Source: Candidatus Thorarchaeota archaeon (GTDB taxonomy: Archaea > Asgardarchaeota > Thorarchaeia > Thorarchaeales > Thorarchaeaceae). Taken from it: a DNA stretch of 64,000 nt. Shown here one piece after another: positions 14,288-64,000 of the stretch; positions within the stretch are counted from its first letter, which is position 1, and each line of letters opens with the position of its first letter. The position numbers and the translations under genes are program-made. The notes under the pieces were generated by a model. That model did no database searches and was not told the DNA's origin. It saw nothing but the letters and a program-made list of their open reading frames with translations. The DNA lies in contig JAWOEX010000028.1 of assembly GCA_046482545.1 (NCBI GenBank), positions 295,778-359,777 on the forward strand, written 5' to 3'.

Positions 14288-17200
14288 CTATCCCTGTCGG
14301 CGCTTGATAAGCACAACGATTACTATTACCGCAAGTGCACCTCCAGCAATCAAGACCAAGACATCAGGTCCGAGTCCGCCACCAGGTCCAGTAGGTTGAG
14401 AAGTCGTGGTTGTAGTCGTTACTAATCCTTGTCCAACGATATACGATAGGACAGCAGATGTTGCTTCTCCTGCAGAGGTGTAGACGACAATCTGGAAAAA
14501 GACCTCTGTGTCTTCGGGATAGCCCTGAATGTCACCCACATAATGATTGGTAGCGTCGCACCACATGCCGGAAACTGAGCTCAAATCATCTGAGCTCGTG
14601 CCATAATGGATTTCGACATTATCTATCTGCTCCTCACTGTAGATGTCCACACCAACCGATACAGGTTCATTTGGTTGTGGTACTTGAGGATCTATCGTCA
14701 AAGATCCAAATTGGACACCACCCGGCTGAGCAGACGTTCCAGAATTGGATACATAGCTGACGAAAACAGGGTCTTGGTAGACACTGTATCCCTGCCACTC
14801 AGGGAATCCGATGGTCACATAGTACATGTTCGAGCTGAATGTCCAAGCCGTGGCTGAACGACCCGAGCTCGATTCGTATGCCGATCGGAATGTTCCAAGC
14901 GGAGTGGTATGACTGACTACGTCATACGGAGCACTTGTGTTCTTGCTCCAATCATAGGTGACCCCGCCCATAATCATTTCCGCAAAGCGGGCACCCGAAG
15001 TCTCAAACTCGAAGGTTTCAGAGCTCACTGTCTGCTCGTTGTCGGACAGGGTTCCGTTTGCCTTGAATGCGAAATCGGACATCGATACTTCGGCGAAGTA
15101 GTTCAAACCAAGAGACTTGTTCTCTAGATTGTCCCGACCGCCTATCATGTCGACTGACCAGTCACCAACAGTATTGTCAACTTTGAGATCTGCCCAGTTG
15201 TTGGTAGCATCGGCTGTCTCGTTGACGTGACCTTGGAAGTGAACCAAGAAGGACAGTTCATCGACGGTCACCTTGGTTGGTCTCTCATCGAAGGTTCTAT
15301 AATCTGAACCCTCCTGGACACCGTCGTACCAGCCCCAGTACCCTTCCATCGTGCAAGGATAGACCGTTCCGTTGATGTCCTCGAAGGTCACACCCCATGT
15401 CACCTCATCGGTAAGGTTCACACGAATGTCACCAGAGTCATCAGTGTTGCCGAATCTCTCACCAGGCTTCACAAAGGATACGTTGGCAACGGACTTGGGC
15501 ATCAAATAGTGGCTCAATTCACCACTCCCTGGATTTGTAAGGTCGACATCCATCTCACTGTTGTTGTTCATGTCCTCCCATATTAGGAGACCACTGTATT
15601 CGTAGTGCATGCCGATATTGAGGTAATGCTCCACATCGTCCTCGACTGTCGAGACTCCGTAGTCTTGACCAACTCCAAAGGATAGCCAAGTCCATGTTTG
15701 TTCGTTTGACGTAATCCAATCATAGCCCTTCTCTTCGGCTTCAGCAACGATATCAGTCCAGGTAACGTTCTTTGCCATCCAAGCAATGTCCCAGTATCCA
15801 GGCTCGGGCTTACCTTCTTCGGTTCGAACTGTGCTGTTAATCTCGCTCCACTCAGTCTGATTGACGAGTTCCATTGTTTGAGCATCATACCAATAGAAGG
15901 TTTGGTTCCACTCGTAACTCCAAGTGAAGGTATCCAAACCCATCCACGATTGTAGATGCATCTCGTCACCGTATAGGGTGCCATTGGGATCCCAGTCAAC
16001 ACCAACCCACATCTTCTCCCACTCATGAGTCCATGAGTCAGTGGAAGAATACGCCTCTCGGATGTAGTATTGGTCATCGGTGGTGTCAAGATTTCCGTCG
16101 AGGTCAAGAGCGCCATTCTCCGGATTTGTGGTCCATTTCTTGACTCCCCACATACCCCACTCAGGAGTGCCCAGGACAATGTCGTAGACATTCCTATACA
16201 CAGCGCTTTGGATTGGCTGAGGACCGTACACTAAGTCGTAACCCCAGCGTTCCCGCATCCTGTATATGTTCTCCTTGGAGGCATAAGCAGTCACATTCGA
16301 ACCCTCATACGAGAAGCTGTAAATCTCGTGTGACTCCTGAATATCCACAAATAGGTCTCCACTGTATGTAGCATTGTGGACATACCAAGTATCTTTCCAA
16401 TAACCTTCCCACTCCCACAGGTACGTCTCAGCCATGAAATCAAAATAGTTCATGCCTGTGGTCTCATTGTAATAGACCATAACACTGTGAGTATCAAGTA
16501 CTGGTAGATCCTGATAGCCAGTCATGTTGATCATTGTACCATTCAATGCTTCATAGTAGTGGAAACTCTCATTATCACTGTCAAACCATAAAGGCCACTC
16601 ATTCAGAGAGTAGAACACGTCTCCAGAGTACTCGTACTCGTAGAGGCGAAGCAGCTGAGTAGAATTGACTATCCAAGTAGTCCCATTTGTGAGGGTGATG
16701 TAGTCATAGGCCCCATCAGGACCACTGCCCTCACTAGGCCAAGAGTCACCATATTCGGTCGTATAATTGACCAAACCGATTTGAGTAAACAAAAGGCTAT
16801 CATCGTAAGTACCCATTGGAGCACTCCACCCAGCGCTAGTCGGATTCCAGATGTGAGTGCCGTTCGCTGTAGTATGCAGTGGAAGTGGATCCAGCAGAAT
16901 CAATGAGTATGTCTCTCCACCTATGTCTGTGAAATAGTCGTAAGACAAATTGTAAACAGGATACCAGGTTCCATTGACGGAGACTGATTTGGTTGTAGGT
17001 ACCAATCCACCTTCGTTCTGCTTGTTGTTCAAATCGGAATGCCAATCTGCATTAGCACCAGGATAAGGCATCTCGTGTTTGACACCATTGATTTCGGTGA
17101 ACCAGAACTTGTGTGTTTCCCAAGTGAAAAGCTTGACAGTTGAACTGTCATATTCGGCTTCAAAGTAGTGCTTGGGCCATGACACTCGATACCAGTGTCC

Positions 17201-19597
17201 GTCTATAGTTGTATAGTACCACCCGTCAGTTTCGTTATATTGTAGGTTATACAAGTTGCCATCAATGTCAGTCATGTAGTAAGAACTTGTTCTGCTATCC
17301 CATCTCCAATCCTCAGCCAGCTCGAGCGTATTGCTTTCGCCGTATCGAACGATCCACCCTTCATTTTGCCAGCCAAAATCAACATTGTCGTAGTACTCGA
17401 TGTTGACGTTGCTGCTGTAATCTGCATAATCATCCCAACTCGTTCCTTGGTGTAGTACTCCGTCAAGGTCTAACCAGCTGTAGTAGGACTCGCCCCCGTA
17501 GTTCCAATGATGATGGTATTTCATTGCAGTAAGGAAGGATTCACCAGTGCCAAGTGTGACATTGTAGATATGGACTGTTTCTTCAAAGGTCACATAGACC
17601 ATAGTTCCGTTGACAAGCTCGTATGTATAGACATCGGTGTCTGTTTCAGGGTCGTAGTGGTCATACATGAGCATGTTCTCATACGTCTCTCCGTTCCATG
17701 AATCATAGGTCTCGTGGACCTCGATTGGTAGATTCTCACCGTCAATCTCGATGTATGGTGAGCTTCTCCCAAGCAGGATTTCATCACCAGTTTGAGCACA
17801 CAGAACATCATTCTTGAAAGCTAGTTGAGGCTGAGCTGTTTCCATGAATACCTCCTTACCTTCGTGTTCAAACGAGTAAATCCACTCACGATCCCAGCTC
17901 TTGACTTCGTGTTGACCATAATCACTGGAGTAATCCTCGTACCATGTATCATTCATGAATGCGAAGTTCCACCAGTAATTGGTTTCAGGAACAACTTCAG
18001 ACATGTTCACCAACCATGAGACATAGAGATCGCCCCCATTTGTCCATGTGGAGAAGTTCGAAGTCGTGCAGAAAGTTGAGTTCACCTTTGTGTACGCACT
18101 TCGGCGGTTAATCCACTCTTCTTGCCACTGTTCGGTCTTTTGGTTATAGAACCACGAGGCCCAGTGCCATCCCTCAACTTCTTTCCACTGCCATTCAGTG
18201 TAGTTACCATACACCCAGTCCCATGTGTCGGTTGTCGTGTTGTAGACATAGTGCCATCCTGTGACATTCACCTTGACATAATCGTGGTAACTGCCGTATG
18301 TGTAATTCTGCTTCTCAGTGAAATTGAAAGCGCTAAATGTCGGAGTACCATTAATATCATAGTCGACGGTATAAATCAGCTGTGACCAGCGCGACTCGTT
18401 TTCAGTCCAGTAGCCATCGCTTGTCTCTAGACTGAATTGTGCACCATCAATGTCATCTGCAATGGCGCCACCTCCCTGAAGTCGGCCCTTAACCATGAAA
18501 TCTTCACTCTTCTCTACCGCAAACATCCAGCTGTCAGGTGATTGACCGTCGGCGGTGAGAATCTTAGCAAGTGTCACTGGGCTCTCAATGGTAATCTCCT
18601 TGGCCATCTGATATTCCTGATCGGTTTGACGAGCAGTCTCACCATAGGTATCAGCCCAATAACGATTGTTTTCAGGTCCCATAACCAAGTCTTTGAATCG
18701 GAAACCTGAGTATTGGTCCGTCTTAGGCATCTCTTCAGTGAAGTGACCAACGAAATCCACACTAAATGCAGTATCGGTTTCCCGTGTGGTGCAAAGCGGC
18801 TCATTCAGTTCGTAGAAATTCGGTAGATCTTCTGGGAGAGGTTCATAGACGGTTATCTCTCGGTTCCATTCATCCTCAACGAGGTGATCGTATGGATAAC
18901 CCCAGTAGGTGTAACCATAATATCTATCCCAAGTACCACCAGCAGTTACGTTGTAAACATAGAACAGCTGTCTATCTACCCATCGAGTCTCATTGACGAC
19001 TTCCTTAGTCCAAGTTCCAGTATCTTCGTCCCATGTCTCGTTAAGCCAGTATATGTCTACTTCGTCTGAAGTGCCAAGATCAACCCACTTCCTTTGCTGG
19101 TGCTCACCATACACTTCATCCATGTAGGTGACTTCTAGGCTCTCATTCCAGATATATGTGTCTAATGAGTCATCATATGTCCAGCCACCATAGTCTGTAA
19201 TGTCTTCTGTGTGCCAGCCAGTAGTATTTACCCATGTCTCAATACCATCAGGCATATTGAATCCAAGTTGAACATAGCTGGGAGTATCGCCTGTGATATT
19301 GTATCGCATAATGAAGTCTGTTCCTCGACTCACAGAATATAGTGAATCGCCCTCCAAATCGACTTTCTCGAGGGTATAGGAACCACCTTTAGACCAGCTC
19401 CAAGCTTCCGAAGGCGACATGCCAACAGAAACTCCTTGGAATTCGTAGCCCGAAGCATATCCATAAGAACTGATACTATTGTAATCAGTATCCATGACGT
19501 CCATGTGCAATTCATAAAGACCCAAAGGTGCATCAGTAGTGAACTTCACAGCGAAATTCACGTAAAAGGCGCTTGAGTCACTGTGATTCGAACAATC
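14288..19597 (-). pseudogene. C-terminal 1769 aa of an IS-interrupted giant acidic Tyr/Trp-rich cell-surface protein
   Basis: Open frame ending in an Ig-like domain, Thr-rich linker, TM helix and KRRQG; joins in frame to 20593-21171 once the IS and one TSD copy are removed. Confidence 0.92.
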
Positions 19598-19606
19598 ATC
19601 AACAAC
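19598..19606. repeat. 9-bp target-site duplication ATCAACAAC (second copy at 20593-20601)
   Basis: Identical 9-mer directly flanks both TIRs. Confidence 0.97.
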
Positions 19607-20592
19607 GGCTCTGTAAAATAATTCATCGTGCAGCACACTCCAGGAAATTCACCTGTTGGATGTTGTGGAGGAGGACTTTGATCAACAGCTCTCGTCGCCG
19701 CTCTTTGTACCCCCTCGAGCTCAGACTTCCACCGAATCGTACCTTCAGCATGCTGAACACTGTTTCTGCAAGGCTTCGCTGGCCGTACTCATGTGTCCGT
19801 TTCCACTCATCCGGGTTCGCTTTATACTCCCGCAGCAACCGCCCGTATCCTCTGTGACCCCGGGATCGAGCTCGTAGGTTCTGTTTGGGTTCGATAGCCG
19901 GGTAGGCACCCAGCTCGGTTACGAACTGAGCGTTCTTTCTGGAGATGTAGGCCTTGTCACCGTAGACCGTTGCAAGATGGCTAGCTGGCACCCGTCGCAA
20001 CAGGGAAACCAGGTGCTTGGCATCTCCTCCGGGTCGAACTCGAACCCGGGCGGCATGAACCAGTAAGCTATCAGTGTCCACGGCCGCGTGAAGGGCATGG
20101 AACCGTCGTCTCCGCGTCGTGTTGAACCGCACAGACGACCACTCACCACCAGTCCCATGGGAGAAGCCAGTGGCGTCCACGGCGACCCGTCTGGGTGGAG
20201 GGCGCCTCCTGGCAACAATCTCGTACAGCCGGTGAAGGCGCCGGGTATCCAGTCGTTTGAGAGCTCCGTTGAGGAGGGTGTGGCTGGGTGGACGTTGAAG
20301 ACCCAGTCGATTGAGGAGCTCTGGCTGGAGGGCAAGCCAGGCTACGAAATCACGGTACCCCAGGCCTGCATCGAATTTGAGGCCGAGGAGAACAAACAGC
20401 ACCGGGAGCGGGAACTCCACCGGTCGGCCACAGTGAGACCGGACATCCGGGATGGTATTGCAAAGGCTCATAAGCTCTTGAAGGAGATAGTGAAAACGGC
20501 GAGCTTTGGCCGCGTTGTATGACCTATCGTAAGCCATAAATCATACGCCGTGGGCGACTCGCCTCTTAATCCTTGTATTATTTTACAGAGCC
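19607..20592 (-). mobile_element. IS5-family insertion sequence, IS903-like, 986 bp
   Basis: Perfect 16-bp TIR GGCTCTGTAAAATAAT (19607-19622; reverse complement at 20577-20592), 9-bp TSD, single DDE transposase, visibly higher GC than the flanks. Confidence 0.96.
19623..20537 (-). CDS. IS5-family DDE transposase (304 aa)
   Basis: AVDATGF (D), YGDKAY (D), YGQRSLAETVFSMLK (YREK-type motif with E). Confidence 0.95.
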   Translation of the reverse strand: MAYDRSYNAAKARRFHYLLQELMSLCNTIPDVRSHCGRPVEFPLPVLFVLLGLKFDAGLGYRDFVAWLALQPELLNRLGLQRPPSHTLLNGALKRLDTRRLHRLYEIVARRRPPPRRVAVDATGFSHGTGGEWSSVRFNTTRRRRFHALHAAVDTDSLLVHAARVRVRPGGDAKHLVSLLRRVPASHLATVYGDKAYISRKNAQFVTELGAYPAIEPKQNLRARSRGHRGYGRLLREYKANPDEWKRTHEYGQRSLAETVFSMLKVRFGGSLSSRGYKERRRELLIKVLLHNIQQVNFLECAAR

Positions 20593-21171
20593 ATCAACAA
20601 CCAAATCAATAAATGAAGGCAGCATTTCACCTTCTTCTTCACTTTCATTCCACTGGCTGCTATATGCAGACCAAACGTCTCCCCAGCCTTCAGACCGAAA
20701 AGTCATACCAAAGTCCGCTGAGAAGTTCCAATCTGGGGTCATATACCAACCATTGATTCTTACTTCGCTGAGGCTCGCATCTTCTGTGAAGATGCTCTTG
20801 GGAATAGTTGTTTGAAAAGTGAGAATCTCCCCTATCTCAGCATAGCTGTCATCAGCAACTTCGCTTCCGTTCTCGTGAAAAATTTTGAACTCCGGACTTG
20901 GTCCGAAAAGCCAGTTCTGATGCTCCCAGGTCCATTCGTCGCTTGTGCTATTCTTGTCTGAATCCCAGTGGACGTAAGTACCATTCTGTGGCTCTTCCGA
21001 ATAAGTCTCATTTTCGCCAGGATCCTCCTGAGAAAATGTGTACATTATCGGAGTATCTTGCTGACCAGATGAAATTCTAGCCATGTTAGAACCGGCATAA
21101 GCAAATGATACCATGAACAAGAGAATAGCGATTGTAGAAAATAGTATGTGTTGTCTATCTGTGTGTCGCAT
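20593..21171 (-). pseudogene. N-terminal 193 aa (with signal peptide) of the IS-interrupted giant surface protein
   Basis: Hydrophobic signal ILFSTIAILLFMVSFAYA; reads ...SFIDLVVD and then enters the TIR, where TAA at 20578-20580 ends the frame. Confidence 0.92.
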
Positions 21172-30813: not shown

Positions 30814-31378
30814 TCTACATATGACCTGTTTCTTACAGTTGTAGCAACTGCATGAAACTTCTGTGTTCCACCCTTCCCCTGCCAGCGTCGCCGCCCCCAA
30901 GGTTACCCAGTGGCTCCGTGAGTCAGCAGGGGCTTTGTCCGCGTTCACTGGAACAGGGTTCCTCCCGCGGTCTTGGCTTCTGTCTCCTGTCGTTGTCCCG
31001 GGTCATCACTCCCGGCAACAGCGAGGTCTTCCACAGTTCTTCCCACGGCGTGGTCATGATCACCCACCTCAGCTTTGTCGCCGTAGCTGAGAAGGTCCAT
31101 TACAGACAAGGTGAACAGCCGCGGACTCTCCGGAACCTGATGGAGTTCCTTTAGTGGAGAGTGGGGACTTCTGTTTAGAAGAGCCTGTCTTCCTTGCAGC
31201 TTTCGGCCGCGTGCGTCGTGTTACACCACTAGCCCACTTGCCTAGTCCTACTGGACCGGGATCCCGTACCAGGCCTAAAAAACTCCTCCCGCCTCGCGTC
31301 ACAATAGTGTTTGCAGGAAATTTTATAGTTATCTTACACTTTTCCACCCGGATCTTTGAGGTTTTTGTAAGATTTCTA
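30814..31378 (-). repeat. Dispersed non-coding element, copy A (longest; GC-rich foldable core)
   Basis: Shares the identical 22-mer CATATGACCTGTTTCTTACAGT and flanking similarity with 48055-48209; 31232-31378 aligns as reverse complement with 63821-63968. Confidence 0.85.
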
Positions 31379-32305
31379 TCCCTCCAGAAATACCGCTTTT
31401 ATGATGTCAATATCGAGTTTCTTGATTATGAGAAACAGGAGTGAGAAAATACCCGCGAACATCAGCATCGTGATTATCATAAGATTGGGATCAACAAAGG
31501 AAAAATCCGGACCTTGAGTCTCAGGTTCTAGGCCAAGCTTGAACCCTTCATTCACGAAATTGAGTATTGTGTGTGCAGAGATTGTCCCCAAGAGTGTTCT
31601 TCCCTTGGAAAACTTGTGGTAATAGAGCCCGAAGAAACCACCAATAACAGCGGAAAACAGCACAAGCTTTACTATCTCGATTATCAAAACTAATCCTTCT
31701 AGCCCATTTGCAAACGGCCAGCAGGCATGCCACACCCCGAAAATCAGAGACGAGAGCAAAATCGCCCGCCCGGGAGAAAGTATCTCCATGAAAGAATTCT
31801 GTAATAAGCCCCTGAAAAGGACCTCTTCAAAGACAGCATTAACGGAGAAGAACAAAACCGAATACATGAGTAATGGATAAGGAGCAATGTGAATGTTGAG
31901 GGGATACGTAGGATTGAGGAATACGGCATACAAAACAACACTCAACATGTCTATACCAAGAACAATAACAAGACCTATGATGGTTCCAGTGAGTAATTGA
32001 ATTTTCCAATCATGCCTTGAAATCCCCAGAACTGAACTTAAATCGGATTTCCTATAGAACCAGAAATAGCCTAGAATAATGATGAGTGGCCCAAGCTTTG
32101 ATGGCATCACATTGAACGTACTGCCACCAAGACCAAACACGAAAATATCCGCCAGTCTCCATATTGTGCCTATAGCTAGCATCATCCCAGCTACTCGGAC
32201 AAGACCAGGGTTAAGATGATCAGCTGGAGTGGTGTTTTCAACTGGACTGTTTCCGATAGTATTTGATTTCATTATTTCAACAACCTTGCACTCAGTTCTG
32301 TACAT
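31376..32305 (-). CDS. CPBP (CAAX/Abi) family intramembrane protease
   Basis: FEEVLFRG, FGVWH, AHTILN motifs. Confidence 0.9.
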   Translation of the reverse strand: MYRTECKVVEIMKSNTIGNSPVENTTPADHLNPGLVRVAGMMLAIGTIWRLADIFVFGLGGSTFNVMPSKLGPLIIILGYFWFYRKSDLSSVLGISRHDWKIQLLTGTIIGLVIVLGIDMLSVVLYAVFLNPTYPLNIHIAPYPLLMYSVLFFSVNAVFEEVLFRGLLQNSFMEILSPGRAILLSSLIFGVWHACWPFANGLEGLVLIIEIVKLVLFSAVIGGFFGLYYHKFSKGRTLLGTISAHTILNFVNEGFKLGLEPETQGPDFSFVDPNLMIITMLMFAGIFSLLFLIIKKLDIDIIKAVFLEG

Positions 32306-48054: not shown

Positions 48055-48209
48055 TCTGCATATGACCTGTTTCTTACAGTCGAGGTAACAGAGGAGATTT
48101 CTGTGTTCTACCCTTTCCTGCCAGCGTTGCCGCCCTCAAGGGGCCCTTAGCCCTTTGTGAAATCTTACACTTCAGCACCCAGATTATTTAGAAATCTGTA
48201 TGATTCCCA
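48055..48209 (-). repeat. Dispersed non-coding element, copy B (internally deleted, both ends only)
   Basis: 48055-~48160 aligns with 30814-~30921; ATCTTACACTT...CACCC.GAT...TGTA.GATT aligns with 31331-31375. Confidence 0.82.
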
Positions 48210-48225
48210 TTAACTCTTGATGTAA

Positions 48226-63820: not shown

Positions 63821-64000
63821 TAGAAATCTTACAAAATCCTAAATAAATCGGCACATAGAAGTGTAAAATATCTGTAAGATTTCCTGTATGCCTTCTTATG
63901 ACCAAGGGCGAGGGGAGTTTATTAGGCCTAGTAAGAAATCCGAGTCTAGTAGGACTAGGGCGGTGGGCCACTCCCAGCGGGGTACGAGCCCAGCCCCGAA
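63821..64000 (+). repeat. Dispersed element, copy C2 (inverted relative to A and B; probably continues past the window end)
   Basis: TAGAAATCTTACAAAA start shared with A; 82/111 ungapped identity by hand count from AAGTGT to TGGGC. Confidence 0.85.

Follow-up and report, generated by a model that had tools for sequence, protein, structure and literature searches.

High-copy miniature elements in a Thorarchaeota genome as probable derivatives of aCas1-TnpB transposons

A stretch of 64,000 nucleotides from a Candidatus Thorarchaeota genome (hereafter the window; G000:C9:295778-359777, with G000 denoting this genome, G001 and G002 two relatives from the same genus, and C-numbers their contigs), whose end coincides with the end of its contig, contains four pieces of a dispersed repeat. 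What kind of element is this? An earlier note on the same DNA had considered a non-autonomous mobile element or a multicopy structured RNA that it was unable to place in a known family. It had located all four pieces correctly, and only small boundary corrections were required. The 22-mer that it reported for copies A and B is present in both of them, and the inverted match between one end of copy A (31232-31341) and a segment near the end of the window (63859-63968) extends over 110 nt with 75% identity.

The repeat is not confined to the window. A genome-wide search, as the earlier note had proposed with BLAST, uncovered far more copies than expected by chance; a family HMM that we built from 23 full copies recovered 105 pieces in this Thorarchaeota genome, with BLAST E-values down to 0. 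Full-length copies spanning both ends number 33 and are each 555-600 bp in size, and the family (pairwise identity among copies, 60-95%) occupies 1.1% of the 3.05-Mb genome. Several contigs break within identical copies whose flanks differ; hence, some of the insertions must be recent. A second, unrelated repeat family of about 100-150 bp (32 BLAST pieces) is clustered on a few small contigs (G000 contigs C13, C17, C18, C19, C32, C45, C2, and C31; e.g., C19:2361-2510), and some of the miniatures in the relatives are inserted beside it.

Copy A reads on the minus strand, and its body (30820-31382) is framed by two hexamers. Its left-flank hexamer, TCTGGA (31383..31388), conforms to a TCNNGA core and is followed by a left end (31290..31382) that comprises a variable spacer of 9-10 nt, a subterminal TCTTACA box (31366-31372) and more TGTAARA boxes. 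A TATA-like box (TTTTTTA, 31276..31282; family consensus TTTATTA) is positioned 33-34 nt upstream of the anchor of an omegaRNA/reRNA scaffold, which lies over a frameshifted tnpB 3' tail (30822..31252; TnpB aa 461-543). The right end (30820..30860) contains a terminal hairpin with a short loop, from which the anti-repeat loop has been lost, a TGTAAGA box (30831-30837) and GGTCA plus an extra TA; the right-flank hexamer TGTAGA (30814..30819) is decayed. This order of left end, TATA-like box, tnpB tail/omegaRNA and right end is the anatomy of full copies in general. Copy B (48055..48220, minus strand; body 48061-48214, with hexamer positions 48055-48060 and 48215-48220; hexamers TCAAGA / TGCAGA) retains the left end and, fused to it, the terminal ~95 nt of the right end; its interpretation in the earlier note as an internal-deletion derivative, evidently an old one, is correct. 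The two remaining pieces, both on the plus strand, represent a nested insertion and not a duplication: the left part of an older copy (copy C1, 63684..63810; hexamer TACAAA) is interrupted by a recent one (copy C2, 63811..64000; hexamer TCCAGA), which is itself cut by the contig end. Over about 190 nt, copy C2 matches the terminus of contig C40 exactly, but the flanks differ. The stop codon of a CAAX-protease-like gene (31376-32305) now lies inside the left end of copy A, so that the insertion changed the C-terminus of the encoded protein.

We delimited the boundaries of the element by aligning copies together with their flanks. The left end begins with TCNNGA, a variable 9-10-nt spacer and a TYTTACA box, behind which further TGTAARA boxes are found, and the right end is composed of a TGTAAGA box, AACRGGTTA, sometimes an extra TA, and TCNNGA. 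In agreement with the earlier note, which had recognized TCTTACA/TGTAAGA near both ends and no long TIR, the inverted repetition is limited to a 7-bp subterminal box 9-10 nt inside either end; terminal inverted repeats, as they characterize MITEs sensu stricto and casposons, are absent from the aligned copies. In 5/37 copies, among them copy A, and also in copy B, GGTTA is separated from the hexamer by an additional TA, a 2-nt imprecision. The statement that there is no TSD proved wrong at the level of the family: a terminal direct repeat, TCNNGA, borders the elements, although in copy A it has decayed (TCTGGA on the left, TGTAGA on the right). Of 37 elements, 20 carry the same hexamer on either side, against 3.6 after shuffling, and 27 (5.8 after shuffling) agree in the central NN.

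That the miniatures move is seen at their empty sites, and the earlier proposal of a non-autonomous mobile element is thereby upheld. Copy A is missing at the orthologous position in both same-genus genomes, where one TCCAGT (plus strand) is present. The flanks of one G002 copy are 96% identical to a site on G000 contig C6 that carries a single TCAGGA, an empty site resolved to the base; three further G002 copies have colinear, gap-free empty sites in G000; and removal of an 8.2-kb relative of the miniatures on contig C20 together with one hexamer restores a GNAT reading frame. Since the empty sites carry a single hexamer, insertion turns one hexamer into two. The target consensus is V-N-W-TCNNGA, with an asymmetric preference, as T at position -3 was found in 0/72 sites (21 expected).

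Several further features of the junctions were inspected. Duplications of 8 and 12 bp are real at the sites of two large elements described below, and three junctions match for 4-5 nt past the hexamer (p ~0.02); TSDs longer than 6 bp were nevertheless rejected as a family rule, because matching past 6 bp is at chance on average. An RNA-guided choice of the target by the downstream flank of the donor was likewise rejected, as sibling copies share nothing past the hexamer. Which of the two ends carries a deviant hexamer showed no significant bias (6 vs. 2). Right-end/left-end circle junctions were absent from this genome, the fetched loci, and the metagenome and genome contigs, a result that speaks neither for nor against a circle. 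Two head-to-head pairs of miniatures share one hexamer (G000 C20:181887/181892 and C41:25278/25280). Several insertion targets (on C12 and C18) resemble the left end of the element, which thus favors its own ends as targets.

The interior had been regarded as probably non-coding. It is, instead, a frameshifted 3' tail of tnpB (tblastn; amino acid identity 67% over 48 aa and 94% over 33 aa). The suggestion of a multicopy structured RNA was also borne out, since covarying base pairs are present in this interior: positions 136-560 form a multi-helix structure in which 93% of the cells are paired and 31 pairs exhibit double changes, a count that is not corrected for relatedness. The folding energy amounts to -187 in the tnpB sense, compared with -158 for the antisense strand and -123 for column shuffles. 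We conclude that the interior is the omegaRNA of a TnpB protein; it overlaps the 3' end of tnpB and reaches the right end, an arrangement by which IS200/IS605 elements are recognized. The Rfam search that had been recommended gave no match at the gathering threshold. A decayed protein-coding gene at the ends, had it been found, was to remove the novelty of the family; this came true in part, for the interior, and as the latter is tnpB tail and omegaRNA, the repeat is less novel than a family without assignment would be and represents a variant of one already predicted.

A TTTATTA box at a fixed distance (33-34 nt) before the RNA anchor is present in the miniatures, also in those of another genus, and is absent from the large elements. 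With the usual archaeal promoter geometry, this box would place the start at a conserved YAGTA just before the scaffold; a miniature transcribed from its own TATA box would yield an RNA that begins about 4 nt ahead of GGACTAGG. Each miniature would constitute a mobile omegaRNA expression cassette with a putative promoter, and its omegaRNA could load TnpB in trans.

Those HMM pieces that start at model position 140 are the 3' ends of tnpB genes, and a longer copy enclosing TnpB, which the earlier note had advised looking for, does exist. We delimited two complete parents, on contigs C20 (8232 bp) and C28 (8302 bp), both of whose ends are held in common with the miniatures; copy A is 83% identical to the left end of the C28 parent over 63 nt and 86% identical to its right end over 405 nt. 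The genome has two additional aCas1-tnpB pairs, as well as several derivatives with deletions. In the parents, tnpB (PF07282 match of its product) is directed toward the right end, an aCas1 ORF of 1410-1655 aa is arranged divergently (head-to-head) to it, and the only other gene is an ORF of 206-224 aa without a Pfam match. Between tnpB and the 224-aa ORF of the C28 parent (L002:2700-3370), the divergent control region contains a short series of imperfect ~40-bp repeats, about four in number, with CGGGTGTACA. A whole copy of the C20 parent, 88% identical, resides at another site in G001 (L055, contig C64), while the neighboring host genes are ~73% identical; judged from these sequences, it may reflect recent transfer or movement.

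Searches of Pfam with the giant ORF (whole, in parts, and with 48 N-domain members) yielded nothing significant, the best Cas1 match having an E-value of 0.12; two aCas1 profiles matched none of the PDB sequences, and no canonical Cas1 family was found in the genome. Its predicted structure is more telling. The first 255 residues fold with a pLDDT of 94; in VIA, the top 12 matches of this N-domain are all Cas1 proteins or casposases (Z 9.0-13.1; next 6.6), the best match having an rmsd of 3.6 over 179 aa, and in Foldseek the top 14 are all Cas1. An earlier model of 620 aa (pLDDT 61) was informative for the Cas4-like domain only, and it was the N-domain folded alone that gave Cas1. As modeled, the first domain of the giant ORF is thus a Cas1 catalytic domain fold. 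Residues E79, H174, D181, D184, and R187 (E, H, DxxDxxR) are invariant in 48 aCas1 homologues. The second domain is a Cas4-like PD-(D/E)XK nuclease (Z 7.5), and the N-terminal beta dimerization domain of Cas1 is lacking, the aligned range beginning at Cas1 residue 82-114; like the absence of Pfam and PDB sequence matches, this counts against the explanation favored here. Four divergent aCas1 genes with 25-32% identity are present in this genome.

The aCas1 gene keeps close company with tnpB (within ~1.5 kb in 23/33 loci) and with the omegaRNA. The aCas1 ORF was detected in 26/36 genomes of the same family and in 0/24 others, and its database homologues are named Thorarchaeota. Among genomes searched for both, 22 possess aCas1 and omegaRNA and 8 neither, and all of those with at least two omegaRNA matches encode aCas1. 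Divergent Cas1 genes associated with TnpB in Asgard archaea (aCas1-TnpB loci; Cas1H-Asgard-1/-2) have been described as a likely distinct transposon family (PMC10691335, citing Makarova et al., 2020, doi 10.1089/crispr.2020.0012). The parents can be assigned to these loci, and the family is consequently no longer without a known relative, as the earlier note had left it. We put the probability that the miniatures are non-autonomous derivatives of Thorarchaeota aCas1-TnpB elements at roughly 0.8.

The leader of tnpB was inspected at 26 loci, 21 of which (the G000 leaders L013, L002, L057, and L056, and 17 loci in relatives) contain a crRNA-like unit: a copy of the right-end sequence that ends in GGTYAG, and then a spacer with an exact match of 11-17 nt to a TATA-containing site ~95 bp upstream, with TTVAT in front of the match in every case. 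In cross-element controls, the match extended over 5 nt, and the repeat-spacer unit covaries across divergent elements. The leader repeat is predicted to form a duplex with the loop of the terminal hairpin of the parent omegaRNA (-30 kcal/mol) but only a poor one with copy A (-15), and this anti-repeat loop is lost in 25/33 miniatures. TTVAT belongs to a canonical type of TnpB TAM (cf. TTGAT of ISDra2). Homing would require TTVA before the hexamer at the empty site, and this was found at 0/72 sites, the position of the invariant T never being T; a right-end guide in the register of the leader would be CNNGA plus flank. With the predicted TAM never present at insertion sites, homing of the IS605 type is unlikely, and from the sequences autorepression of TnpB through a short trans guide appears to be the better reading. 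In the RuvC domain of TnpB, D243 and D438 are present, the RuvC-II glutamate is replaced by G346, and E404 is a candidate alternative; an E-to-G rearrangement in RuvC-II has been described for such TnpB proteins (PMC10691335).

Does the hexamer derive from the target alone, or does the element bring it along? The nearest neighbor by left-end sequence has the same NN in 15/32 copies, compared with 4-5.4 expected in a test that is inflated by kin (e.g., one clade of four TCAAGA copies), and shuffle p-values overstate the case because related copies are not independent. By right-end sequence, the NN is not shared beyond expectation. In the three genomes, left spacer classes go along with particular hexamers (RWAGGY, 17/23 TCAAGA; NCTTTGT, 5/5 TCAAGA; AAGGRT, 3/3 TCTTGA; GWRTTAG, 5/6 TCCAGA), TCAAGA making up 11% of the TCNNGA sites in the genome; the link between left end and NN was seen again in G001 and G002. 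The copies are mosaic (left/right identity correlation, 0.32). In one case, TCCAGA stands at the junction of the nested copy C2, whereas TCCCAG occupies this point in a close sister of copy C1, as if the element had brought some of the hexamer along. That the NN tracks the left-end lineage, unlike in a plain target duplication, suggests core-matched insertion. We therefore lean toward a core-matched strand exchange in which the target hexamer is preferably equal to that of the donor; a plain staggered-cut duplication with a sub-family-specific preference is possible, although we doubt it. An inherited core would, if true, be new chemistry for a Cas1.

These elements of the argument can be assembled into a working model. 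aCas1, acting in trans, would bind the TYTTACA/TGTAARA boxes at both ends and excise or copy the unit, the two ends meeting at the hexamer core; the unit would then insert at a V-N-W-TCNNGA target whose hexamer preferably matches its own. The TnpB of the parent would be steered by the crRNA-like leader RNA to its own promoter region, resulting in autorepression. The combined proposal, which is tentative and rather unlikely to hold in all its parts, envisages aCas1 as a recombinase-like transposase that, in contrast to casposases and CRISPR adaptation, inserts by way of a 6-bp core which the donor brings along and which corresponds to the target; TnpB as diverted from homing to autorepression, for which a crRNA-like leader RNA acting in trans would employ the omegaRNA as a tracrRNA; and the miniatures as promoter-bearing omegaRNA cassettes. 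As most of these (25/33) are without the anti-repeat loop, they could titrate TnpB, weaken the repression, and so make more of the mobilizing enzyme available.

How do other explanations compare? The same parent and the same enzyme might instead act by a staggered cut, casposase/DDE-like, that leaves a true 6-bp TSD, each diverged aCas1 variant serving its own left-end variant with a preferred hexamer. Target duplications are an established product of Cas1 and casposases, this genome encodes four divergent aCas1 proteins, and the empty site displays a clean change from one hexamer to two. At least 10 NN types, however, occur among the copies, near-identical left-end bodies carry different NN (mostly single steps from TCAAGA), and the single nested junction of copy C2 and the three junctions that match beyond the hexamer do not fit easily; we consider this scenario doubtful. 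That an unrelated enzyme (a DDE transposase, an undetected serine or tyrosine recombinase, or IS110) mobilizes the miniatures in trans, with aCas1 as a passenger, is improbable. A symmetric core with inverted boxes at a fixed distance does recall att sites and the subterminal repeats of IS1111, and the genome has DDE insertion sequences, which were not excluded one by one. Yet this genome, which is 98.9% complete, has no match to serine (PF00239) or tyrosine recombinases (PF00589; found in all 14 control genomes), genes of this kind are absent from the parents, and the miniatures co-occur with aCas1 across the family. The IS110 type suggested in the earlier note finds no support either, as PF02371 has no match in the genome or in the parents. 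In the window itself, an unrelated IS with a DDE transposase gene (PF01609; 19623-20537) seems to interrupt a large gene at 14288-21171.

An ordinary non-autonomous IS200/IS605 element (PATE or orphan omegaRNA), moved by a Y1 HUH TnpA, with TnpB homing and the giant ORF as cargo, would account for a TnpB whose 3'-overlapping omegaRNA ends at the right end, for asymmetric ends with hairpins, and for the one Y1 match in the genome. This match, however, represents a truncated piece of tnpA, short and AT-rich, that has become part of unrelated DNA (L012:1478-1800), and no Y1 TnpA lies inside the parents. Y1 elements insert without target duplication, and the 6-bp direct repeat at the empty sites largely refutes this reading and, with it, the IS200/605-type mechanism of the earlier note; TTVAT is not the target motif; and the aCas1 catalytic residues are invariant in a gene tightly linked to tnpB. 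We regard it as very unlikely. A family of host genes for a structured RNA (ribozyme, intron, SRP/RNase P-like) that is not mobile can hardly be entertained: in its favor are a strongly conserved structure with compensatory changes and the TATA-like box, but the insertions are polymorphic, nested and interrupt genes, the empty sites refute it, and the direct homology to tnpB 3' ends, together with the lack of an Rfam match, point elsewhere.

It has been proposed that aCas1 is a transposase, in a second transposon family that, like the casposons, relies on Cas1. About 100 miniatures per genome, with their empty sites and recent identical copies, provide the best evidence so far that aCas1-TnpB elements move. 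With a donor of 560 bp, a target (VNW-TCNNGA) and catalytic residues now defined, a simple in vitro assay could answer whether aCas1 is a transposase. From the leader unit, TTVAT is predicted to be the TAM, and a TnpB would possess a natural split guide; the unit offers a plausible model for the origin of tracrRNA/crRNA pairs from an omegaRNA. On the practical side, the family fragments Thorarchaeota assemblies and yields false "novel RNA" calls.

Among known systems, the published aCas1-TnpB loci are closest, as they have a divergent Cas1 homologue beside TnpB in Thorarchaeota, repeats flanking the locus, and a GTTCACTCA motif near tnpB (PMC10691335), which here occurs in every parent and in 8/33 miniatures, in each case at the right end. 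The "hypervariable region" beside GTTCACTCA could correspond to this leader unit. The main text of that paper contains no gene-less high-copy miniatures, exact ends, TCNNGA core or its inheritance, empty sites, or promoter-matching leader unit behind a TAM (PMC10691335); in the literature searched, the miniatures, ends, core and TAM are apparently unreported, although Makarova et al. (2020) and the supplement of PMC10691335 may cover part of this. Aloposons (PMC8813620) were considered and set aside, with their different gene set, integration at tRNAs and no mention of Cas1 or TnpB. With casposons (PMC4046053, PMC5137440) the family shares a Cas1-fold integrase (casposase 6opm, Z 10.7) and a direct repeat at the insertion site. 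Unlike them, the parents have TnpB but neither a family B polymerase nor true terminal inverted repeats, and their Cas1 catalytic domain is fused to a Cas4-like nuclease in a protein of 1400-1900 aa. Casposons have a fixed insertion site with a longer duplication, whereas the target here is a dispersed 6-bp sequence.

IS200/IS605 and IS607 TnpB elements (ISDra2; archaeal sotRNAs) likewise have an omegaRNA that extends over the tnpB 3' end to the right end, and they share, along with orphan omegaRNAs and PATEs, a TTGAT-type TAM and gene-less derivatives. The present family differs from them in having no Y1 or serine TnpA, in its 6-bp direct repeat, in a TAM that is not the insertion motif, and in the second, trans-acting repeat-spacer unit of the parent leaders; in comparison with IS607, there is no PF00239 match, and the core has a variable NN, not a fixed GG. 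In Tn916 (coupling sequences), IS607/serine and IS110 systems, a short core carried by the element is matched or tolerated at the target; none of their enzymes is present here, and the candidate enzyme is Cas1-derived. The leader unit resembles tracr-L, scaRNA, and CreR (PMC8730458; bioRxiv 10.1101/2023.03.03.530964), which consist of a stand-alone repeat and a short spacer with an 11-17-nt partial match to the effector promoter by the PAM/TAM; unlike in these CRISPR repeat-like RNAs, the effector is a transposon TnpB without a CRISPR array, and it is the terminal hairpin of the omegaRNA whose loop provides the anti-repeat. Being short, multicopy and gene-less, with both ends in common with an autonomous element and with polymorphic insertions, the miniatures are MITEs sensu lato. 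Collectively, the family is not a member of the casposons, IS200/IS605, IS607 or IS110; it is derived from the aCas1-TnpB family and works like the MITE of a Cas1-integrase transposon.
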